IMG/VR virus record: IMGVR_UViG_3300027734_000055
Location: 1 to 64,000 of that record
Strand: one strand, 5' to 3'
Source: a virus
Length of the DNA stretch: 64,000 nt
The notes below the pieces were generated by a model. It saw only the letters and a program-made list of their open reading frames with translations, made no database searches and had not been told where the DNA came from. The first letter of the stretch is position 1. Every line of letters begins with the position of its first letter. Shown here piece by piece: positions 10,804 to 63,683 of the stretch. A program made the position numbers and the translations under genes.

Positions 10804-11720
10804 TGTCTTTATTGCAAGCACTAATCGCATCTTCTCAAACAAGAATACCACTTTCTGTTACTTTAGCTTCTAATACAGCTAATTACTCATTAGATATATC
10901 TACTATATCCGGATATATTGCTACTATTTCAGATATTACTATTACTGTAAATAGCGGAGTGTACGTATATTCAACAACTACCGCTGGCTACGGTATGAAT
11001 TTAACTGGCGGCACAGCAGGCGACACACTTACTATAGTAAATAACGGATTTATTATAGGCCAAGGCGGTCAAGGTGCTAGTTATCCGGCTGCAACAGGAA
11101 ATGGTAACCCTGGGGGACCTGCTCTTAATATACCCATAAGTGCTACAATTAATAATACTAATGGCGGGGCTTTCATAGCTGGTGGTGGAGGTGGTGGAGC
11201 TGCTTGGATATCATCTTCAGTAGTCAATGGTGGAGGTGGAGGCGGTGCTGGTGGAGGTGCTGGCGGAGATGGCAATAATCAGGCTGGAACGACAGTAACT
11301 GGAGGTGCTGGTGGTGGACTAGGTGCATCAGGCAGTGCTGGAGCTTCAGGTACAAGTGGCCAACCTGGTGGGGGTGCTGGTGGTGGTGGTGGTAGAATAT
11401 TACCTGGTACAGGAGGTTCTGGTGGAACATCTTCATCTATTCTTGCTCCTGGACAAGGTGGTGGTGCAGGTGGTGGTGGTGAAGGTGGTGGCGGTAATAC
11501 TGGTGGTGCTGGCGGATCAGCAAATGGTGCAGGAAATCCTCCATCTAATCCTTTCTACTCATCTGCTGGCGGAGGCGGCTGGGGAGCTTCTGGCGGTTCT
11601 ACTAGTGGCGCTGGTACAGGCGGTTCTGGTGGAAGCGGGGGTAAAGCCGTTAACCTTAATGGTAATTCAGTAACTTGGGTATCAGGTGATACTTCTAGAA
11701 TATATGGCGCAGTATCATAA
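10803..11720 (+). CDS. Glycine-rich adhesin-like protein
   Basis: Start adjusted to ATG 10803 (TAATG overlap); paralogue of 7432..8466. Confidence 0.75.
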   Translation: MSLLQALIASSQTRIPLSVTLASNTANYSLDISTISGYIATISDITITVNSGVYVYSTTTAGYGMNLTGGTAGDTLTIVNNGFIIGQGGQGASYPAATGNGNPGGPALNIPISATINNTNGGAFIAGGGGGGAAWISSSVVNGGGGGGAGGGAGGDGNNQAGTTVTGGAGGGLGASGSAGASGTSGQPGGGAGGGGGRILPGTGGSGGTSSSILAPGQGGGAGGGGEGGGGNTGGAGGSANGAGNPPSNPFYSSAGGGGWGASGGSTSGAGTGGSGGSGGKAVNLNGNSVTWVSGDTSRIYGAVS

Positions 11721-11992
11721 TGAATATGGAAAAAATTACAAGCATGTTGTTCCCAGTGATAGTCTCGGCTATTGCTTGGTTACTTACTTCAATGGCGTCT
11801 ATACAAGCAGACCTCATCAGCATCAAATCTAAAATGCCTAACCTTATTACAGAACAAGGTGTGCCAACTGATAGTCCTATATCTGCTGAAGCTAGAGCTA
11901 AATTAAAAGAAGAATTAAAAGTGCAGATGGGCGAACTTAATGTACGTATTAGAATTTTAGAAGAACATGATATGCAAAGAAAGGGTAAATAA
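11720..11992 (+). CDS. Membrane-anchored lysis-region protein (possible spanin/antiholin)
   Basis: N-terminal hydrophobic helix plus coiled-coil; directly before holin. Confidence 0.45.
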   Translation: MNMEKITSMLFPVIVSAIAWLLTSMASIQADLISIKSKMPNLITEQGVPTDSPISAEARAKLKEELKVQMGELNVRIRILEEHDMQRKGK

Positions 11993-12477
11993 TGTTTAGT
12001 ATATTAAGCTCCATATTAGGTTTTGCTACTGCAGGTTTACCTAGCATATTAGGATTCTTTCAACAAAAAGGAGATCAAGCTCATGAACGTGAAATGGCAA
12101 GATTACAAAACGAGCAAGCTATGGCTATGGCTCAACAAGGTTTTCAATCACAAGAAAAAGTAGCAGCTATTGAATTGGAGGGTACTTATGCAGAAACATT
12201 CGCACAAGAAAGACAAGCACTTTATGAACATGATGCTAAATTGGTTCACGATGCAGCCCCATGGGTTAGAACTCTTAATGCAGCTGTCCGTCCTATTGTT
12301 GCTTTCACTTTTGTAGGACTACTTATATTTGTAGATGTAGCAGGTTTTATTTGGGCTGTACAAACTGTAGGGTTTAGTCGAGAGTCTATGGATGTTATAT
12401 TTTCATCAGATGAAATGGCTATTGTGGGTTCTATTATTGGCTTCTATTTTGGAGCTAGAACTTGGGAAAAGAAATAA
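11992..12477 (+). CDS. Holin (3TM, GTA-holin-like)
   Basis: Hydrophobic segments, VRP..AF motif and C-terminal IIGFYFGAR; adjacent to lysozyme. Confidence 0.7.
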   Translation: MFSILSSILGFATAGLPSILGFFQQKGDQAHEREMARLQNEQAMAMAQQGFQSQEKVAAIELEGTYAETFAQERQALYEHDAKLVHDAAPWVRTLNAAVRPIVAFTFVGLLIFVDVAGFIWAVQTVGFSRESMDVIFSSDEMAIVGSIIGFYFGARTWEKK

Positions 12478-12927
12478 GTGAATGTATCAAAAGCTGGCAT
12501 CGCTCTTATTAAACATCACGAAGGCGTGCGTAGTCGTCCCTATCGTTGCCCTGCAAACTTGTGGACTGTTGGTGTGGGTCACCTTATCGGGAATGGCAAA
12601 TTGTTGCCTGATTCTTATAACAGAACTTTTTCGGAAGAAGAAATAGATGGGCTTCTTAAATCAGACTTACGACGCTTCGAGCTTGGAATATCTAAGATGT
12701 TACCTAACGTGCCTCTTCGACAATGTGAATTTGATTGCCTTGTATCTTTTGCCTTTAATCTTGGCTTGGGTACATTTCAACGATCAACACTCCGTCAAGC
12801 GCTTCTTCGTGGGGATAAGAAAAAAGCTATGGAATCATTAATAAAATATTGTCGTGCAAGCGGTAAAATACTGAAAGGTCTGCAAACTCGCAGATTGGAT
12901 GAGAAAGCACTCTTTGAAGGTAAATAA
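12478..12927 (+). CDS. Endolysin, GH24 phage lysozyme
   Basis: HEGVRSRPYRCPANLWTVGVGH = E-x8-C-x5-T triad; FAFNLG, GLQTRR..E motifs; GTG start. Confidence 0.92.
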   Translation: MNVSKAGIALIKHHEGVRSRPYRCPANLWTVGVGHLIGNGKLLPDSYNRTFSEEEIDGLLKSDLRRFELGISKMLPNVPLRQCEFDCLVSFAFNLGLGTFQRSTLRQALLRGDKKKAMESLIKYCRASGKILKGLQTRRLDEKALFEGK

Positions 12928-47392: not shown

Positions 47393-48046
47393 ATGACAGA
47401 CCCGAATACTCAACAAAATCAACAAGATAAACCCAATAACGACGTGGTTATTGTGCCTTTTATCGAAGAAAATATACCTATACCCAAGAATGCTAGGGAT
47501 GCCCTACCAAGTATGACGTCGGAAGACGAAGTTATGCTCAGGGCGCAAACTATTAAAGAAGTAAGTGACATTATGGGTGAAGAAATTGTGCCAAATGCAA
47601 AAAATATTAAAGAAGCTGAAGATTTAGCACGCAAAATGGTAGAAAACCCAGGCCTAAAACAAGAATACGGTATATATGCTAACGAAACTGTGGCTTACTT
47701 AGGTGGGTTAGTAGGAACTTACAACCACATGATCGTAAAAGACCTAGCAGATTTGAAGTTATTCGTAGTAAATAAGTTGGTCGAAATTGTGCATCACCAA
47801 GATAGTAATATAAAAGAACAAATTACAGCATTAAGATCTATTGGTGAGGTCGATGGCATAGATGCATTTAAGAAGAAGACAGAAGTCATCCACAAAATGG
47901 AGACAATGGAAGAAGTTGAAACTGAGTTACTATCCATGTTGAAAGAATTAAAAGCGAAAGCATTATTAAAGCCTAAATCAGAAACGATAGACGCAGAAAT
48001 TGTAGAAGATGACAGAGACGACACCGAAACCAAAACTGACAAGTGA
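47393..48046 (+). CDS. Putative terminase small subunit
   Basis: Immediately upstream of and overlapping TerL; helical, ALR.IG....DAF motif. Confidence 0.65.
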   Translation: MTDPNTQQNQQDKPNNDVVIVPFIEENIPIPKNARDALPSMTSEDEVMLRAQTIKEVSDIMGEEIVPNAKNIKEAEDLARKMVENPGLKQEYGIYANETVAYLGGLVGTYNHMIVKDLADLKLFVVNKLVEIVHHQDSNIKEQITALRSIGEVDGIDAFKKKTEVIHKMETMEEVETELLSMLKELKAKALLKPKSETIDAEIVEDDRDDTETKTDK

Positions 48047-49556
48047 GAATATTGAGGAACTAGAGTCCCTATTCCAAGTAGCAGACCCAGCGGACAAAGT
48101 TAAACTTCAAAAACTTCTTAAAACTTATAAGAGCAAGGTTGTCGAAAAATCGGGTAAAGATAATTTTTTAGATTTTATACAACATGTATACCCAGGTTAC
48201 ATTATAGGAGAGCACCATAGAAAACTTGCGCAAATATTTGAAGACATTGCCAATGGAATCAAGAGAAGAGTTATTGTTAATATTGCGCCACGACATGGGA
48301 AGTCTGAGCTTATCTCATATCTTGCGCCTGCTTGGTTTCTTGGAAAGTATCCTCATAAGAAAGTTATTATGGCGTCTCATACCGCTGATCTTGCTGTTAA
48401 CTTTGGTCGTCGCGTTAGAAACTTGGTGGGTGCTGATGCATACAAAGATATTTTTCCACAGGTAGAACTACAAGCTGACAGTAAATCGGCATCACGATGG
48501 GGGACAAACTTTAATGGAGAATATTTTGCAATTGGTGTGGGTGGTGCCCTCGCTGGTCGCGGGGCTGATTTGTTTATCATTGATGACCCACACTCTGAAC
48601 AGGATGCTAAGCTTGGACGAGCTGATGTATTTAAGCCTGCTTGGGAGTGGTTTCAGTCTGGCCCTCTTCAACGTCTTATGCCGGGTGGCGCGATTATTGT
48701 AGTAATGACTCGGTGGTCTAAGTTAGACTTGACTGGTGAGATTGTGAACCAGATGGTGAAGCAAGAAGGTGTAGACGAGTGGGAAGTAGTAGAGTTCCCG
48801 GCTATTATTGAGAATAAACAAGGTGAAGAAGAATCACTCTGGCCTGAATTCTGGCCACTCAAAGAACTCTTAGCAAAGAAGGCAGCGCTAGATGTTCGGT
48901 ACTGGAATGCTCAGTATTTACAAAACCCGGTATCAGAAGAAGGTGCGCTAATTAAAAGAGAGTGGTGGAAGATATGGGAAGGTGAAGATCCGCCTCAATG
49001 TGAATTCACCATTATGTCACTGGATGCCGCACAGGAAGCGACAAACAGGGCAGACTATAATGCATTAACAACTTGGGGTGTCTTTTTTAACGAAGAAACC
49101 AATAATTATAATATAATACTATTAAATAGTATTAAACAACGACTAGAGTTTCCTGAGCTTAAAGAGCTTTGTATACAAGAGTATAAGGAATGGGAACCTG
49201 ATGCGTTTTTAGTTGAAAAGAAATCTAACGGCGCTGCACTCTATCAAGAGTTTAGACGGATGGGTATTCCTGTCGGTGAATTTACACCTGGTAAAGGTCA
49301 AGATAAAATCAGTCGAGTAAATGCCGTGTCAGATCTATTTAGAAGTGGTATAGTGTGGGCTCCAGATAGACGATGGGCACATGAGGTTATAGAAGAGTGT
49401 AATGATTTCCCAAGTGGTGCTAATGACGACCTTGTAGATAGTACAACACTTGCATTAATGAGATTTAGACAAGGCGGATTTATTAGATTACCAAGTGATG
49501 AACCCGATGAAGTTTATGGATTCAGAAGCAACAGTAAAAAATTATATGCATTATAA
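48009..49556 (+). CDS. terL: Terminase large subunit
   Basis: APRHGKS Walker A, IIDDP Walker B, MTRW, nuclease SLD...DY....DDLVDS. Confidence 0.95.
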   Translation: MTETTPKPKLTSENIEELESLFQVADPADKVKLQKLLKTYKSKVVEKSGKDNFLDFIQHVYPGYIIGEHHRKLAQIFEDIANGIKRRVIVNIAPRHGKSELISYLAPAWFLGKYPHKKVIMASHTADLAVNFGRRVRNLVGADAYKDIFPQVELQADSKSASRWGTNFNGEYFAIGVGGALAGRGADLFIIDDPHSEQDAKLGRADVFKPAWEWFQSGPLQRLMPGGAIIVVMTRWSKLDLTGEIVNQMVKQEGVDEWEVVEFPAIIENKQGEEESLWPEFWPLKELLAKKAALDVRYWNAQYLQNPVSEEGALIKREWWKIWEGEDPPQCEFTIMSLDAAQEATNRADYNALTTWGVFFNEETNNYNIILLNSIKQRLEFPELKELCIQEYKEWEPDAFLVEKKSNGAALYQEFRRMGIPVGEFTPGKGQDKISRVNAVSDLFRSGIVWAPDRRWAHEVIEECNDFPSGANDDLVDSTTLALMRFRQGGFIRLPSDEPDEVYGFRSNSKKLYAL

Positions 49557-54855: not shown

Positions 54856-55770
54856 ATGGCTATTTCACGCGCACAGCTCCTTAAGGAGCTCTTACCAGGA
54901 CTAAATGCACTATTTGGTCTAGAATACAAACGTTACGGTGAAGAATCTAAAGAAATTTACGAAACTGAAACATCAGAACGTTCATTCGAAGAAGAAACAA
55001 AACTTTCAGGTTTCTCAGCAGCACCAGTCAAAAACGAAGGCACTGCAATCGCTTATGACAATGCTCAAGAAGCTTGGACAGCTCGATACAATCATCAAAC
55101 TATCGCTCTTGGCTTTTCTTTAACAGAAGAAGCTGTAGAAGATAACTTGTATGATACATTATCAGCACGTTACACAAAGGCTTTAGCTCGCGCTATGGCT
55201 TACACAAAACAAGTTAAGGCTGCTTCAGTTCTTAATAATGGTTTCAATAACTCCGGCTCTTATGACGGTGGTGACGGCGTATCATTATTTAACACAGCTC
55301 ATCCTCTTGTTTCAGGTGGCACAAACAGCAACACTCAATCAACTCCTACAGACTTGAACGAAACAGCATTGGAAAATGCAGTTATTCAAATCGCTGCTTG
55401 GACTGATGAACGTGGTCTTTTGATCGCTGCTCAACCACGTAAGTTAGTAGTTCCACCAGGTAATCAATTCGTTGCAACTCGTTTGCTCGAAACTGAACTT
55501 CGTGTTTCTACAGCTGACAATGACATCAATGCTATTAAGAATAATGGTTCAATTCCAGAAGGTTACACAATTAACCACTTCTTAACAGATCCTGATGCTT
55601 ACTTCTTAACAACTGATGTACCTAACGGCATGAAACACTTTGTGCGTACTCCGTTATCTACTTCAATGGATGGCGATTTTGACACAGGCAATGTTAGATA
55701 CAAAGCTCGTGAGCGTTATTCATTCGGTTGGTCAGATCCTCTCGGTATGTGGGGTTCACCAGGCGCTTAA
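54856..55770 (+). CDS. Major capsid protein (Mu gpT-like)
   Basis: MAISRAQLLKELLPGLNALFG...GGDGVSLF...HPL...RYKARERYSFGWSD; strong RBS; downstream terminator. Confidence 0.92.
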   Translation: MAISRAQLLKELLPGLNALFGLEYKRYGEESKEIYETETSERSFEEETKLSGFSAAPVKNEGTAIAYDNAQEAWTARYNHQTIALGFSLTEEAVEDNLYDTLSARYTKALARAMAYTKQVKAASVLNNGFNNSGSYDGGDGVSLFNTAHPLVSGGTNSNTQSTPTDLNETALENAVIQIAAWTDERGLLIAAQPRKLVVPPGNQFVATRLLETELRVSTADNDINAIKNNGSIPEGYTINHFLTDPDAYFLTTDVPNGMKHFVRTPLSTSMDGDFDTGNVRYKARERYSFGWSDPLGMWGSPGA

Positions 55771-55794
55771 TAGCAACTGGCTACGTACTACTAA

Positions 55795-55826
55795 AAGGGC
55801 TCACTTAAAATGTGGGCTCTTTTTTT
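55795..55826 (+). terminator. Rho-independent terminator after capsid gene
   Basis: AAGGGCTCAC-TTAAAAT-GTGGGCTCTT then T-run. Confidence 0.8.
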
Positions 55827-55921
55827 ACCTGTAATTCATGGTTTTCTTGATGTTTGTTTTCATTCAATTTGAAATAATGCAGTTGTAGAGTGAAAACTTT
55901 ATATAACTTTAGGAGATTATT

Positions 55922-55999
55922 ATGAAAACATGGACTAAACCAGCAGCAACTGAAATGAGATTTGGCTTTGAAGTAACTATGTACGTAATGAATAAGTAA
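55922..55999 (+). CDS. pqqA: Pyrroloquinoline quinone precursor peptide PqqA
   Basis: MKTWTKPAATEMRFGFEVTMYVMNK*; W-x-K-P...R-x-G-F-E-V-T-x-Y PqqA signature with the E-x3-Y core; AGGAGA RBS at 55911-55916. Confidence 0.97.
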   Translation: MKTWTKPAATEMRFGFEVTMYVMNK

Positions 56000-56020
56000 T
56001 AGTTCTTTGCTTTAAATTAA

Positions 56021-56040
56021 GGGGCTTCGGCCCCTTTTTT
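56021..56040 (+). terminator. Rho-independent terminator after pqqA
   Basis: GGGGC-TTCG-GCCCC-TTTTTT. Confidence 0.92.
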
Positions 56041-56042
56041 AC

Positions 56043-56070
56043 TTGCTTTATATATAAAATGTAGTATTAT
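56043..56070 (+). promoter_or_regulatory. Sigma70 promoter TTGCTT-16-TATTAT
   Basis: Directly after the terminator and just upstream of the structured leader. Confidence 0.6.
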
Positions 56071-56076
56071 TCTCCT

Positions 56077-56150
56077 ATCCGGGTATATCCGGTTTATTAG
56101 ACTGTCCCGGCAGACGCATATAAGACTAATAGACTTAACTCTATATGGAG
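56077..56150 (+). ncRNA. Candidate pseudoknotted RNA downstream of gpT-like capsid (possibly Mu-gpT-DE motif)
   Basis: Pairings 56092-100/56126-134, 56102-104/56111-113, 56079-83/56106-110, 56117-122/56142-147; family name inferred from context only. Confidence 0.55.
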
Positions 56151-56158
56151 AAAATCAA

Positions 56159-56584
56159 ATGGCTTATACAACCTTTAGCGGCCCAGTCCGTTCATTAGCA
56201 GGCTTTGCAGAACCAGTAACATACATCAAAGCTACAGACGTAGTAGCAGGTGAAGTTATTATTGAAGCAGGCGCTAACGTAGTTATTCTTTCACCAGCAG
56301 ATGGTGGTCCAGCAACTGAAGCTGCTTTAGTACTTCCAGAAGTAGTTAGTGGTGCATTTACTTTAGCTGATCAACCAGCAGATGCTCAATACAATGGTAT
56401 TAAAGGCTCAGTATTGAACTACGGTGCAGTTGCTCACGTATTAAAAGGCTACGGCACACAAAAAGTTAACGGTTCAACAACAGGCGTTGTTATTCCAGCT
56501 GGCTATGTTACTCAATGGGGTGGCAACGGTAACCAAGCTGCGCCTTGGGCTGCTGCTAACTCAGTTCTTTCAACAGCTAAATAA
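56159..56584 (+). CDS. Virion protein (MAxTTFSGPV type)
   Basis: Typical N-terminus of the post-capsid gene in this phage group; GGAG RBS. Confidence 0.7.
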   Translation: MAYTTFSGPVRSLAGFAEPVTYIKATDVVAGEVIIEAGANVVILSPADGGPATEAALVLPEVVSGAFTLADQPADAQYNGIKGSVLNYGAVAHVLKGYGTQKVNGSTTGVVIPAGYVTQWGGNGNQAAPWAAANSVLSTAK

Positions 56585-56593
56585 TTAAACTCT

Positions 56594-56616
56594 GGGGGCG
56601 CTTAGCCCCCTTAATT
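56594..56616 (+). terminator. GC hairpin, possible weak terminator
   Basis: GGGGGC-GCTTA-GCCCCC-TTAATT. Confidence 0.55.
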
Positions 56617-56635
56617 AAACTTAAGGAGATTAATT

Positions 56636-57148
56636 ATGAGTATGCAATATGATGTAAAACAAGCACACTTAAATTCTAGTGGGTATTTTGTAAAATTTGC
56701 TACACGCGTTAAAGGGCTATCATTTGCAGGTACTGCTTCTGCCGGGACTATAGTTTTATTTGATACCGCAGCAACCCCTGTATCAGCAGGCGTAACTTAT
56801 GCACAAGCAGCTAATACTGTAACAGTAACCAAAACAAACCATGGATTAAATACAGGCGATGTTATTGGTATTCACTTTTTATCAAATGCCGGTGTTTCAG
56901 CTACTGATGGTACATATGCTATTACTAAAACAGGCGCAGATACTTTTACAGTTACAGATATTAATTCACGTACAATAACAAGCACTGCTGCTGTATATAC
57001 TGTTGGTAAATGGCTTATGACTTATGAAGTTACTGCCGCAGATACCTATACTAACGTGCCTTTTATTCCAGGTGAAGGTATAAGAGCAAATACAGGTATA
57101 TATGCGTATATGACTAACTTAGAATCAGCACAAATAATTTATGGCTAA
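56636..57148 (+). CDS. Virion structural protein
   Basis: MQYDVK...RVKG...IPGEGI...YG frame with inserted TVTVT..NHGL.TGD beta-domain. Confidence 0.65.
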   Translation: MSMQYDVKQAHLNSSGYFVKFATRVKGLSFAGTASAGTIVLFDTAATPVSAGVTYAQAANTVTVTKTNHGLNTGDVIGIHFLSNAGVSATDGTYAITKTGADTFTVTDINSRTITSTAAVYTVGKWLMTYEVTAADTYTNVPFIPGEGIRANTGIYAYMTNLESAQIIYG

Positions 57149-57622: not shown

Positions 57623-57796
57623 ATGTTAAGTAAAATTTTAAATATTTTTAATAAGGAAAAAACTATGGAAGACTCAAAAGTAGATCAAGCCACTGAAGCT
57701 GCAGTAGAAGCTATTGTAGAAGAAGTAAAAAAAGAAGTTAAAAAAGAAGTTAAAAATCAAGGTGTTTCTTGGTTCACTAATACAGATGCCAAGTAA
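57623..57796 (+). CDS. Small hypothetical protein (not in ORF track)
   Basis: MLSKILNIFNKEKTMEDSKVDQATEAAVEAIVEEVKKEVKKEVKNQGVSWFTNTDAK*; alternative start at 57665 with AAGGA RBS. Confidence 0.55.
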   Translation: MLSKILNIFNKEKTMEDSKVDQATEAAVEAIVEEVKKEVKKEVKNQGVSWFTNTDAK

Positions 57797-58316
57797 ATCT
57801 AAAGCACAAAGAAATCTTATGGCTGCCGCAGCTCACAATCCTGCGTTTGCTAAAAAGGTAGGGATTCCTGTATCAGTAGCTCAGGAATTTAACAAAGCTG
57901 ACAAAGGTAAAAAATTTAAGGAGGGTGGTATGATGGATAAGAAAGATTTAATGCAGGATAAAATGCTTATTAAAAAAGCAATGAAACAACATGACGCACA
58001 AGAACATAAGGGTGGCAAAGGTACTAAGCTAGCTCTTAAAAAAGGTGGCGTTGCTAAAACTGTTACTAAGGAGATGGAATATGATTATAAAACAGGTAAA
58101 AAATCTTTTACTGGTACAACTGCCCAAAAAGATGCTCACGCTGAAAAAGAAGGTAAAATCGTTGCTAAACATTTAGCTTATGATAAAGATATGGACAAAA
58201 TGTGTGGTGGTGGTATGGCTAAATCTAAAAAATATGCTAGCGGCGGTAAAGTATCTCAACTAGCTAAAGCTAATGGTATTGCTGTTAAAGGCAAATCAAG
58301 AGGCACACTTATTTAA
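57786..58316 (+). CDS. Basic protein with xxxGG repeats
   Basis: Start adjusted to MPSKSKAQ; FKEGG, LKKGG, MCGGG, YASGG; C-terminus shared with 58326. Confidence 0.75.
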   Translation: MPSKSKAQRNLMAAAAHNPAFAKKVGIPVSVAQEFNKADKGKKFKEGGMMDKKDLMQDKMLIKKAMKQHDAQEHKGGKGTKLALKKGGVAKTVTKEMEYDYKTGKKSFTGTTAQKDAHAEKEGKIVAKHLAYDKDMDKMCGGGMAKSKKYASGGKVSQLAKANGIAVKGKSRGTLI

Positions 58317-58325
58317 GGATATATC

Positions 58326-58742
58326 ATGGCAGAAAAAAGAAAAATGATGGACGAGTTTAAAGCAATAAAAGATGCTCAAGTTTTAAGAGAAATGTCTGAT
58401 GATCCAATAGCAGCACAACGCGCATTAAATGCAACAGCACAAACTGCTAAAGCTTTAAGAGGTATGCAAATGGGTAAAATAGAAGCCCCTATGAGCGACG
58501 ATATGGGTCCATCTTCTAAAGTACCTCCTGTTAAAATGCCTGACTTAAAAACTAAAGATACAGGCGATAAAAATGAATTTGATGTTAAAGGTGAAAAAAT
58601 GCCTGGATATGAAAATTCAAAACCTATGAAAAAAGGTGGCAAAGTAAAAGCTAAATGTATGGCTTCAGGTGGCAAAGTGTCCCAATTAGCAAAAGCTAAT
58701 GGTATCGCTGTTCGCGGCAAGTCTAGAGGACGTATTATTTAA
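58326..58742 (+). CDS. Basic protein with xxxGG repeats
   Basis: MKKGGKV, MASGGKVSQLAKANGIAVRGKSRG. Confidence 0.75.
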   Translation: MAEKRKMMDEFKAIKDAQVLREMSDDPIAAQRALNATAQTAKALRGMQMGKIEAPMSDDMGPSSKVPPVKMPDLKTKDTGDKNEFDVKGEKMPGYENSKPMKKGGKVKAKCMASGGKVSQLAKANGIAVRGKSRGRII

Positions 58743-61036: not shown

Positions 61037-61465
61037 ATGCCAAGTAAATACGCAAGCGCCAAGAATTCCATTGCCCAGTGTGATCGCTGTGGTTTTAGAT
61101 ATAAGTTAAAACAACTTAAAAGATTGGTTATAAAGACCAAAAATGTTAATATACTGGTATGTCCTGAATGTTGGGAGCCGGATCAGCCACAATTAAGTTT
61201 AGGCTTATATCCAGTTAACGATCCGCAGGCGGTTAGAAATCCAAGACCCGACTTAGGATATTACCAATCTGGTCTAAATGGATTGCAAACTATTGCTCAA
61301 ACAGGTCCGTTACAAAGAGAAACAGGTGTGCCTTTATTAGGTAGCCGAGTTATTCAATGGGGATGGAATCCTGTGGGGGGTTCAAGATTAAACGATGCTG
61401 GATTAACGCCTAATGATCTAGTAGGAATAGGTAATGTAGGCACAGTAACAGTATCAACAACATAA
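61037..61465 (+). CDS. Zn-ribbon protein
   Basis: CDRCGF...VCPECWE...PQL...DPQA...PRPD. Confidence 0.75.
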   Translation: MPSKYASAKNSIAQCDRCGFRYKLKQLKRLVIKTKNVNILVCPECWEPDQPQLSLGLYPVNDPQAVRNPRPDLGYYQSGLNGLQTIAQTGPLQRETGVPLLGSRVIQWGWNPVGGSRLNDAGLTPNDLVGIGNVGTVTVSTT

Positions 61466-61475
61466 GGAGAAGTAT

Positions 61476-61670
61476 ATGGGATTCAGATCAGCAGCAGATG
61501 GTATTACTAAACAAGGTAAAACTAAAGGTCGTAACTTAGGTGACGACGGCGCTAAAGTAGCTATTCAAAATGGTCCAAAAGAATCAGGTAGCAAAGGTGG
61601 TAAAACTAATGCTGACATGAAAAAAATGGGTCGTGGTATGGCTAAAGTTGCAGCACAAAAAAAGGGGTAA
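61476..61670 (+). CDS. Small basic protein (homologue of 108..296)
   Basis: Sequence similarity to copy A. Confidence 0.8.
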   Translation: MGFRSAADGITKQGKTKGRNLGDDGAKVAIQNGPKESGSKGGKTNADMKKMGRGMAKVAAQKKG

Positions 61671-61674
61671 TAAA

Positions 61675-62019
61675 ATGGCTAAAAATGACTTTCCAAAACC
61701 AACACCAGCGGAATCATTTCCACTAGGTCACGCTAAAGAAAACAAAGATGCAAGTGCCTATACAGGATTTAAATATCCATCAGGCGGTACTGGCAGCGAT
61801 ATTGGCATATATAAACAACCAATGCCTAACCCAAATAGTACTGATATACATTTCAGTCAAGATCCTAATAAATTAAGATCACAGCAAATTAGTAAGCAAA
61901 CAGGCGTCCAACGTGTAAGCGTGGGTGATCCTACTCGCCCTGCTAAGACTGAAGGTATTACTATTCGTGGTTGCGGCGCAGCTACTAAAGGTACTAAAGC
62001 TAGAGGTCCGATGGCGTAA
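61675..62019 (+). CDS. Hypothetical protein (homologue of 301..642)
   Basis: Sequence similarity to copy A. Confidence 0.8.
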   Translation: MAKNDFPKPTPAESFPLGHAKENKDASAYTGFKYPSGGTGSDIGIYKQPMPNPNSTDIHFSQDPNKLRSQQISKQTGVQRVSVGDPTRPAKTEGITIRGCGAATKGTKARGPMA

Positions 62020-62654
62020 TGAACTACACGCAGCTAGTTGATGAAATACAAAGTTATGTAGAAAATACGTTTCAGACAACGGATATAGACACGTTTATAA
62101 CCCAAGCCGAACAACGTATTTATAACTCAGTGCAACTTCCTGCGCTTAGAAAGAACGTAACAGGCTCTCTTACTACAGGTAATAAATATTTAGCTATGCC
62201 TAGTGATTGGCTTGCTACATTTAGTTTGGCAGTGATTAATGCAAATAATGAATACTTATATCTTTTAAACAAAGATGTAAACTTTATTAGGCAGTCTTAC
62301 CCAGATACAGATTCTGATTATTATGGTGAACCTGCATATTATGCGGTATTTGATAGTACTACATTTATTGTAGGACCTACTCCAGATGCTTCGTATGCTG
62401 CGGAACTTCATTATTTTTATTATCCAGAGTCCATTACTACTGCTGGAACCTCTTGGTTAGGCGATAACTTTAGTTCTACATTGTTATATGGCTCATTATT
62501 AGAAGCTTATACCTACATGAAGGGCGAACAAGACATTATTAATCAATACCAAAAACGATATGATGAAGCTATGATTCTATTGAAACAATTAGCTGATGGC
62601 AAAGATAGACAAGATGCTTATCGTTCAGGTCAAGTAAGGTACCCAGTTAGATGA
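62019..62654 (+). CDS. Putative adaptor protein (homologue of 646..1290)
   Basis: Sequence similarity to copy A. Confidence 0.65.
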   Translation: MNYTQLVDEIQSYVENTFQTTDIDTFITQAEQRIYNSVQLPALRKNVTGSLTTGNKYLAMPSDWLATFSLAVINANNEYLYLLNKDVNFIRQSYPDTDSDYYGEPAYYAVFDSTTFIVGPTPDASYAAELHYFYYPESITTAGTSWLGDNFSSTLLYGSLLEAYTYMKGEQDIINQYQKRYDEAMILLKQLADGKDRQDAYRSGQVRYPVR

Positions 62655-63076
62655 TCTTAGGACAAGCACTGACCACAACCTTTAAGGTAAACTTATTAAA
62701 AGGTTTAGAGAATTTTTACACGGGGTCACCTTATACATATAAAATAGCCTTGTATAATGCGGTAGCTACTTTAAATAGCGAAACAACTGCATATACAACG
62801 CAAGACGAAATTACAGGTACTGGCTATATAGCGGGGGGTAAAGTTTTAGCTCCTACCGTAGGTAGTGATCCTAGTAATAACACGGCTTATGTTACGTTTG
62901 CTAATGTAACTTGGAGCCCTGCAAGCTTTACGACTGCTGGCGCTTTAATATATAATAGCACTACAAATGCATCAGTCGCAGTACTAAATTTTGGTGGTCA
63001 AAAAACAGCCACTACAACATTTACAATAGAATTCCCTTCAGCAACTTCAACCACTGCTGTAATACGAATTAACTAA
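62651..63076 (+). CDS. Putative tail protein (homologue of 1287..1712)
   Basis: 124/141 aa identical to copy A by manual count. Confidence 0.65.
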   Translation: MILGQALTTTFKVNLLKGLENFYTGSPYTYKIALYNAVATLNSETTAYTTQDEITGTGYIAGGKVLAPTVGSDPSNNTAYVTFANVTWSPASFTTAGALIYNSTTNASVAVLNFGGQKTATTTFTIEFPSATSTTAVIRIN

Positions 63077-63086
63077 AGGAGTAATT

Positions 63087-63683
63087 ATGAGCAACATAGA
63101 CAAATTTGGAATGGGCGACTCAGTTGATGCGTCTGTGACAAGAAATGCTGGATCAAATGATGAGTTTGGTCTAAACGGCGTCTATACATTTACATGCTAC
63201 GATCAAGACGGCAATGTTAAATGGGAAGACGCATTTGAAAATTTAACAACAAACGTAGGTCGTCAAAGCTTACTAAATTCTTATTTTGCTAACACAGGTG
63301 GCGGCGCAGTTGTTATGGGTCTTATGACTAATAATGCTGTACCAGCATCTATTCCAGCTTATACAGATACACAAGCATCTCATGCTGGTTGGTTTGAAGC
63401 AGGTTCTGCAAATGCACCTACATATTCTGGTACAAGAAAAACACCAGCATTTAGTACTGCAACAAATGCTAACCCATCAGTACTTTCTACATCAGCAGCG
63501 GTAGTATTCTCAATGACTGGTTCTGGTACTGTAACAGGTGCATTTATTAATATTGGTGGTACATCAGCGATTGATAATACGACAGGTACATTGTTCTCTG
63601 CAGGTAACTTTACAGCAGGTTCTAAAACTGTAACATCAGGCGACACAATTAACGTAACATATACTTTATCAGCTTCGGGCTAA
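63087..63683 (+). CDS. Putative tail protein (distant homologue of 1723..2343)
   Basis: Shared KWE..F.NL..N.G, SHAGW.E, LFSAG.F, GDT..VTY motifs but otherwise divergent. Confidence 0.65.
   Translation: MSNIDKFGMGDSVDASVTRNAGSNDEFGLNGVYTFTCYDQDGNVKWEDAFENLTTNVGRQSLLNSYFANTGGGAVVMGLMTNNAVPASIPAYTDTQASHAGWFEAGSANAPTYSGTRKTPAFSTATNANPSVLSTSAAVVFSMTGSGTVTGAFINIGGTSAIDNTTGTLFSAGNFTAGSKTVTSGDTINVTYTLSASG

Follow-up and report, generated by a model that had tools for sequence, protein, structure and literature searches.

Can a phage support the metabolism of its host by supplying a substrate instead of an enzyme? This question is raised by a locus in a virus contig from freshwater, where a 25-codon reading frame directly behind the major capsid gene had been described, from the DNA letters alone, as pqqA, the gene for the precursor peptide of the cofactor PQQ. 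The answer we favour, with a probability of about three in four, is that the phage would supply the consumable substrate of the PQQ pathway of its host and thereby sustain methanol dehydrogenase during infection. In the following, we consider the identity of the gene, the authenticity of the contig, the origin of the cassette and its fate in related phages, and weigh this reading against its alternatives where the evidence bears on them.

A pqqA gene among phage structural genes

The stretch of DNA analysed (the window, 64,000 nt) is part of a 74,775-bp virus contig in IMG/VR; CheckV classes this contig as complete, and its GC content is about 38-39%. The record encodes a large terminase, a DUF927-domain protein of 950 aa, a family-A DNA polymerase (Pol A), an SNF2 helicase and a cell-wall hydrolase. 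The pqqA reading frame has viral flanks, with the capsid gene on its 5' side and genes of the structural module on its 3' side, and is the only recognisable metabolic gene at the capsid locus. The capsid gene codes for a major head protein of the Mu gpT type (PF10124, E 1.3e-9; phrog_371, E 5.4e-21) that is 73% identical to its counterparts in MinM2 and Pag-Yong1 and 64-65% identical to those in DSL-LC04 and Pelagibacter phage HTVC023P. The features needed here are the following:

48009-49556, large terminase gene, in the same record
54856-55770, plus strand, major capsid gene (Mu gpT-like major head protein), directly 5' of the pqqA cassette
55793-55826, plus strand, upstream hairpin terminator: 12-bp stem at 55793-55823 with A-tract/U-tract arms, followed by U residues
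55909-56042, plus strand, host-like cassette of ribosome-binding site (RBS), reading frame and terminator, delimited by DNA matches to the host family and by alignment
55911-55916, plus strand, Shine-Dalgarno motif AGGAGA, 5 nt 5' of the ATG, read from the sequence
55922-55999, plus strand, pqqA: 25 codons and stop, ATG at 55922, TAA at 55997-55999
55925-55930, plus strand, 6-nt in-frame insertion AAAACA (Lys-Thr), from alignment with host and phage copies
56019-56042, plus strand, intrinsic terminator: GGGGC-UUCG-GCCCC stem-loop with T-run, from terminator scan and fold
56159-56584, plus strand, variable 141-aa reading frame 3' of the cassette, with no homologue at 80 capsid-related loci

The reading frame is present with every element that had been described for it. 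Its translation, MKTWTKPAATEMRFGFEVTMYVMNK, comprises 25 residues, within the roughly 20-40 codons expected of a small family member with its own RBS, and an in-frame TAG follows directly upon the TAA stop. Both available PqqA models match over their full length with about twice the curated cutoff, the Pfam model PF08042 with 42.1 bits (cutoff 21.1) and the NCBIfam equivalog TIGR02107 with 40 bits (cutoff 20). The E-x3-Y pair is intact and corresponds to Glu17 (55970-55972) and Tyr21 (55982-55984) in the sequence Glu17-Val-Thr-Met-Tyr21. PqqE, assisted by PqqD, cross-links this Glu-Tyr pair, after which a protease, PqqB and PqqC complete PQQ, so that PqqA is the substrate of the pathway (PMC10906245). 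Neither strand holds another reading frame of at least 20 aa that overlaps pqqA, no Rfam family comes near its threshold at the site, all matches staying below half the gathering score, and PHROGs has no family for the 25-aa peptide. By the measure of both models, the reading frame is a genuine pqqA gene, and the family membership first read from the letters is confirmed.

The peptide departs from the common form at its N-terminus, where the AAAACA insertion between Met and Trp leads to an MKT-W instead of the usual M-W start. Extra residues at this position also occur elsewhere: the related contig L266 has an MKAW start, and cellular PqqA sequences begin with MIMW, MTMW, MKW, MKMW or longer forms. 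The leader WTKPAAT that follows, a candidate binding region for the chaperone PqqD, is the same as in cellular copies, one of which lies directly 5' of a putative pqqB reading frame.

The initial annotation had recognised no pqqB, pqqC, pqqD, pqqE or dehydrogenase gene in the genome, and this holds for the whole 74,775-bp record, in which searches returned none of pqqB, pqqC, pqqD, pqqE and PQQ_2 dehydrogenase. The phage carries an intact pqqA, equal to the host substrate except for the two-residue N-terminal insertion, and none of these enzymes. The record also holds no tRNA genes and no match to the tyrosine integrase family PF00589 at E <= 0.1. It is the genome of a tailed phage, lytic by its looks, with a unit of about 61.4 kb.

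The pqqA locus is not an assembly product

A short host-like segment in a viral contig can result from host DNA that was mis-joined during assembly, as had been raised from the outset as a possible refutation, and the record does show assembly trouble elsewhere, in that the identity between its overlapping ends is only 84-87%. As the ends overlap, the real unit is about 61.4 kb; the terminal overlap represents a second strain or a chimeric join, and pqqA is located in the unique part of the record. Against a mis-join at pqqA itself stand the phage genes on both flanks and five further IMG/VR contigs, all obtained from other samples (L002, L006, L038, L055 and L056), with capsid proteins 84-96% identical to that of the phage, which hold pqqA in the same slot after the capsid gene. 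Parts of the locus are moreover present in public data: run X1 contains an exact unitig over 55765-55909, and 55948-56104 is spanned by a contig of another study, from a different year, that joins pqqA to phage-specific downstream DNA. Finally, the insert measures only about 135 nt, and the DNA upstream of it is specific to the phage lineage (93% identity to the viral contig L225). We consider a mis-join barely credible in view of these observations. All holders of the sequence are freshwater or lake metagenomes, distributed over 13 studies.

In a self-comparison, the record extends over about 1.2 genome lengths, with 1-1726 matching 61370-63090 at 84% and 11720-12540 matching 73955-74775 at 87%. 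The end overlap exists only in blocks, and its diverged middle contains large tail-fibre-like genes.

Host family and origin of the cassette

The peptide had been assigned to a type characteristic of Methylophilaceae, and the distribution of its core bears this out. In a scan of one genome per prokaryotic species, at least 120 stretches held the exact core EMRFGFEVTMY; among 80 listed titles, 63 are from the Methylophilaceae family (Methylotenera, Methylophilus, Methylobacillus, Methylovorus, Candidatus Methylopumilus and others), 16 have higher-rank labels only, and one is an Acidovorax MAG. A DNA search with pqqA within the family matched 295 of 301 genomes. From the Trp onward (residues 4-25), the phage peptide is the same as 26 cellular and 21 viral copies among the matches listed. 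At the DNA level, the best cellular match listed, from a Methylotenera-labelled MAG, agrees at 63 of 69 nt, with the differences at synonymous sites, and the viral copies listed agree at up to 67 of 69 nt. A genus call from these identities (63 for Methylotenera-labelled, 56 for Candidatus Methylopumilus sequences) was rejected, as 69 nt are too little sequence for it. Of the host first proposed, a methylotroph resembling Methylopumilus, Methylotenera or OM43, the family therefore stands as Methylophilaceae, but a marine OM43 host is unlikely, because the runs holding the sequence are freshwater and lake metagenomes.

Two contigs binned with bacterial genomes point in the same direction. G200:C13 (L327-L329), a contig of 54,979 bp binned with a MAG of the Methylophilaceae family, represents a nearly complete relative of the phage, with 42 reading frames in common and a capsid protein of 87% identity, and G002:C147 (L324), a short contig in a Methylotenera MAG, contains the 3' end of a capsid gene together with pqqA. 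We regard both as phage contigs that were co-binned with their likely hosts; since they have no bacterial flanks, they constitute only weak host evidence.

How does the phage gene relate to the copies of these bacteria? In one Methylotenera MAG (L110), a pqqA identical from the Trp onward is located directly 5' of a 305-aa reading frame (beginning MHIHVLG...GGGFPQWNCNC) that we take to be pqqB, and the same MAG contains a pqqE that scores above cutoff and lies, on one contig and strand with a pqqA, about 2 kb away from it. Such linkage is found in the minority of cases: among the matches listed, 55 cellular copies are orphans that no large reading frame follows, compared to 17 with one, and all five Methylophilaceae genomes inspected have a pqqE above cutoff along with three to seven pqqA hits each, mostly far from pqqE. 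This agrees with the 3-12 pqqA copies described for Methylophilaceae next to single pqqBCDEFG genes (PMC4109929). As most pqqA copies of the family are unlinked to pqqB-E, linkage does not define the peptide family, and the isolated position of the phage gene does not set it apart from most of its cellular counterparts.

The similarity to host DNA extends beyond the reading frame. Many Methylophilaceae-family DNA matches span about 55898-56046 with 77-81% identity, and an alignment with two host orphan copies (G218 and G134) reveals the same AGGAGA region and a near-identical GGGGCTTCGGCC(C/T)C hairpin with T-run. The 86 nt 5' of the RBS, on the other hand, match only other viral contigs, L225 at 93% being an example, and in the close phage relative L002 the terminator differs from the host-type hairpin. 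The phage copy accordingly has in common with the orphan copies the peptide from Trp, the AGGAGA motif, the UUCG-loop terminator and the lack of adjacent pqqB-E, whereas it differs from them by its location between structural genes, the two-codon insertion and its purely viral upstream DNA. We infer from this pattern that the cassette was probably taken from, or exchanged with, host orphan pqqA copies.

Host-like DNA of this kind could also be the remnant of an attachment site, with a host pqqA as the homology target for integration, given that hosts carry this short and conserved gene in several copies, much as they do tRNA targets. However, the record has no tyrosine integrase, the reading frame was kept complete with RBS and start codon, and the agreement with the best cellular copy listed is limited to 63 of 69 nt, with synonymous differences. 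Among the carriers of pqqA there are also T4-like phages, which are known as strictly lytic. We therefore give this explanation hardly any credit.

Presence and absence of pqqA in one capsid clade

If the cassette came from the host, it is of interest what became of it in the phage lineage. Between the phage and its closest relative, L002/L239, the capsid gene is 92%, the neighbouring genes about 83-92% and pqqA 97% identical; the intergenic DNA flanking pqqA, in contrast, does not align. As sets selected by pattern are conditioned on 11 core residues, owing to the exact back-translated core used in the search, we estimated selection on six genomes picked by capsid and not by pqqA. These gave pS = 0.42 and pN = 0.045, a ratio of 0.11. 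The replacements affect residues 2 and 5 after the Trp, in the leader, and one is a conservative Val-to-Ile exchange right after the cross-linked Tyr. The ratio argues that the pqqA reading frame is translated and indicates that the gene is retained under purifying selection in the viral lineage.

Presence and absence at this locus in related phages, which the initial annotation had named as a check, was mapped on a tree of capsid DNA from 66 genomes, each of which extends for 400 nt or more beyond the capsid gene; this is a quick tree in which several rows have odd base composition, so that its finer branching calls for caution. All six pqqA carriers are found in a single 11-member capsid clade (SH-aLRT 97), and none of the 55 relatives outside this clade has pqqA in the same slot. 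Two state changes are enough to account for the distribution on the tree, and in none of 500 label shuffles did the carriers cluster as well. The remaining five of the 11 clade members, whose contigs are 7-43% complete, have pqqA neither behind the capsid gene nor elsewhere on these contigs, and the near-complete G200:C13 has no pqqA at all. Joints that connect 55742 to 56019 and 56040 to 56623, hint at variants without pqqA and without the 141-aa gene, respectively, but were left out of account because their sides measure just 21-22 nt. Given its absence from the slot in five of 11 clade members and from G200:C13 entirely, pqqA is, as far as genome comparison can tell, dispensable to the phage.

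Such a distribution would also be expected of a neutral passenger, that is, of a host orphan cassette recently picked up by illegitimate recombination in a permissive slot and of no benefit to the phage. Apart from the pqqA-less clade members and the co-binned G200:C13, the slot itself speaks for this possibility: in 80 relatives, there is no homologue of the next gene, the 141-aa reading frame, and its alignment with L002 is confined to the first 12 or so codons and the region upstream of it. It has the look of a gene that lies next to the capsid gene and is hypervariable except for a conserved N-terminus. The cassette has also retained its host-type terminator. Yet the reading frame stayed intact across capsid lineages that are 8-23% apart in their DNA, with a pN/pS of 0.11 amid flanks that cannot be aligned, and unrelated phages have acquired pqqA at many different positions. 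We therefore find a passenger distinctly unlikely, and continue to favour a phage that benefits from providing PqqA.

Signals for expression

The initial annotation had noted an AGGAGA ribosome-binding site and a terminator on each side of pqqA, all of which we found. The context of the ribosome-binding site, AACTTTAGGAGATTA, resembles those that precede the capsid gene (54835) and the gene at 56636, and the host orphan pqqA copies have a similar one. A common motif, AACTT(T/A)AGGAGA(T/A)T, can be written for the capsid gene, pqqA and the gene at 56636 (sites 54835, 55905 and 56617). The upstream hairpin starts 23 nt after the capsid stop (55770); the fold of 55771-55835 has -18.3 kcal/mol with z = -3.28, and a simple terminator scan did not list the hairpin at 55793-55823. 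Downstream of pqqA, a G+C-rich stem of 7 bp with a UUCG loop (56019-56036) precedes the T-run.

Neither in the 94-nt spacer nor anywhere between the two hairpins did a scan for sigma-70 promoters find one; the best -35-like candidate by eye is TTGAAA at 55869, with a poor -10. The 14-mers of the upstream spacer recur in the genome only as the common RBS context, and a repeated promoter motif is not among them. Its place directly after the capsid gene and the capsid-like RBS context suggest that pqqA may be expressed late and strongly; the strong 5' hairpin and the negative scan for sigma-70 promoters speak against this. Both read-through and an unrecognised promoter are candidate routes of its transcription. 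Two metatranscriptome runs hold words of both capsid gene and pqqA in their Logan contigs, where the pqqA bin sums host and phage copies. The phage-specific AAAACA tag of 6 nt would separate phage from host transcripts.

The two strong hairpins that bracket the unit could also be taken to indicate a role outside PQQ synthesis, in which the peptide or its RNA would titrate PqqD/PqqE, serve as a regulator, or act as a hairpin unit that insulates capsid transcription. The phage peptide, however, is identical to the host substrate and not an enzyme-blocking variant. Such roles are also at odds with selection that acts on the amino acids and leaves synonymous sites free to change, with the lack of a match to any known RNA family, and with L002, which keeps the reading frame with a different terminator. 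Such roles are in our view highly improbable.

A proposed supply of consumable substrate to the host pathway

Our preferred reading, provision of PqqA as a substrate, builds on a peculiarity of the pathway. The host enzymes PqqD and PqqE, the protease, PqqB and PqqC act catalytically, whereas PqqA is destroyed, with one peptide spent per PQQ. As host gene expression declines, phage-made PqqA, probably produced with the late structural genes, may secure the supply of the one input that PQQ synthesis consumes. The phage peptide is a putative substrate of host PqqE, PqqD, PqqB and PqqC, and its conversion to PQQ would then sustain the PQQ-dependent periplasmic methanol dehydrogenase, and hence the energy supply, until lysis. 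Because PqqA is consumed while the enzymes turn over, a phage copy of this gene alone would keep PQQ synthesis running. The viral flanks, the selection on the reading frame and the presence of pqqE in all five Methylophilaceae genomes inspected are as expected of an auxiliary metabolic gene, for which pqqA is a candidate.

An analogous case is the psbA gene of cyanophages, which encodes D1 and thereby a rapidly consumed part of the host energy system. D1 is the component with the fastest turnover, other parts of that system being stable, and expression and function of cyanophage psbA in infection are experimentally established. Proteins and pathways are unrelated in the two cases, and for phage pqqA the role is a proposed one. 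A working phage copy would rank among the smallest known auxiliary metabolic genes and would be unusual in kind, since the virus would provide a consumable peptide substrate and not an enzyme. Viral infection would in this case be tied to methanol oxidation in lakes.

pqqA in other phages

The initial annotation had cautioned that phage pqqA may have been noted before, a doubt that proved justified. PqqA, together with a methanol dehydrogenase, was published in 2020 for VP_266, a T4-like virus from Lake Baikal with a predicted Methylophilaceae host, and the same role was proposed for it (PMC7678222; Coutinho et al. 2020, Microbiome 8:163). Both are phages of freshwater lakes with predicted Methylophilaceae hosts, and in both the gene would be an auxiliary metabolic gene for methanol oxidation. 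They differ in that the present phage is related to HTVC023P and MinM2, has a unit of about 61 kb and a Mu gpT-like capsid, and encodes no dehydrogenase.

The gene is, moreover, common in phages. At least 120 IMG/VR contigs contain the exact core, and in 12 of the 119 that were analysed, pqqA comes immediately after a homologous capsid gene; in about 18, it follows a homologue of the cell-wall hydrolase of the phage. In the rest, 188 different neighbour clusters occur, including SSB, YqaJ exonuclease, ERF, Peptidase_M15 endolysin, T4 RegA, T4 Gp23 capsid and Hsp20, indicating that phage pqqA exists in many lineages and at many insertion sites.

The search by tblastn that had been proposed covered deposited phage genomes. 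Among these, a PqqA-like reading frame is found in 11 of 11 cultured Methylophilales/Methylophilaceae phage records, among them Venkman, P19250A, MEP301, MEP401, MEP402 and four Melnitz records, and also in the Manatee Spring podovirus. These cultured methylophages (Venkman, P19250A, MEP301, MEP401/402, Melnitz) have PqqA-like reading frames 77-95% identical over residues 4-25, likewise with no other pqq genes nearby, but they are other phage types with the gene at other positions: in Venkman it lies in the early region and antisense to all neighbours, and in Melnitz beside tRNA genes. Their hosts are mostly marine OM43 bacteria, whereas the present phage is from lakes. Gene callers miss pqqA, for which every deposited methylophage record inspected has either no annotation or an antisense reading frame across the site. 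Venkman, P19250A, MEP301 and MEP401/402 have no annotation at the site, and the inspected Melnitz record and the Manatee Spring record have a 'hypothetical protein' annotated on the opposite strand across pqqA. The deposited records concerned are MW202481 (L330), MZ577097 (L331), MT375522 (L321) and KX815270 (L322). In a full-text literature search, no paper turned up in which pqqA and OM43 phages are mentioned together; in the Melnitz paper, PQQ appears only as a supplement of the medium. A published medium for OM43 includes 1 nM PQQ (PMC9004378), which could mask an effect of deleting pqqA from a cultured phage.

Phage pqqA is thus already published once and widespread, and the present copy is one more example, not a discovery. 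Specific to it are the phage lineage, the restriction to one clade, the host-derived cassette and the two-codon insertion, and its local value lies in placing pqqA within an HTVC023P/MinM2-like lineage, in a single capsid clade and in a host-derived cassette. More generally, pqqA may serve as a cheap marker to predict Methylophilaceae hosts of uncultured phages. It is tempting to go further and to see the unit of RBS, pqqA and UUCG hairpin as a tiny mobile cassette that moves both ways between chromosomes and phages, and that has become a near-universal marker of Methylophilaceae phages, gained independently at dozens of sites. We put this forward as a speculation that is rather unlikely to hold in full; if true, phage traffic would help to explain the 3-12 scattered orphan copies in Methylophilaceae.

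Further observations

Outside the methylophages, two records of Acinetobacter phage MD-2021a (CAKLQF020000010 and CAKLQH020000055) gave weak PqqA-like tblastn matches, with 78% over 18 residues and E 0.01. They hint that pqqA might extend to phages of non-methylotrophic bacteria that use PQQ.

Within the record itself, the two reading frames at 57762-58316 (184 aa) and 58326-58742 (138 aa) end in near-identical C-termini of about 26 residues, GGKVSQLAKANGIAV-K/R-GKSRG..., which suggests a duplicated or common module. The large reading frames of the tail module contain direct repeats of 78-87% identity, at 7615-8278/10842-11520, 3806-3981/4085-4260 and 4634-4824/10186-10376.
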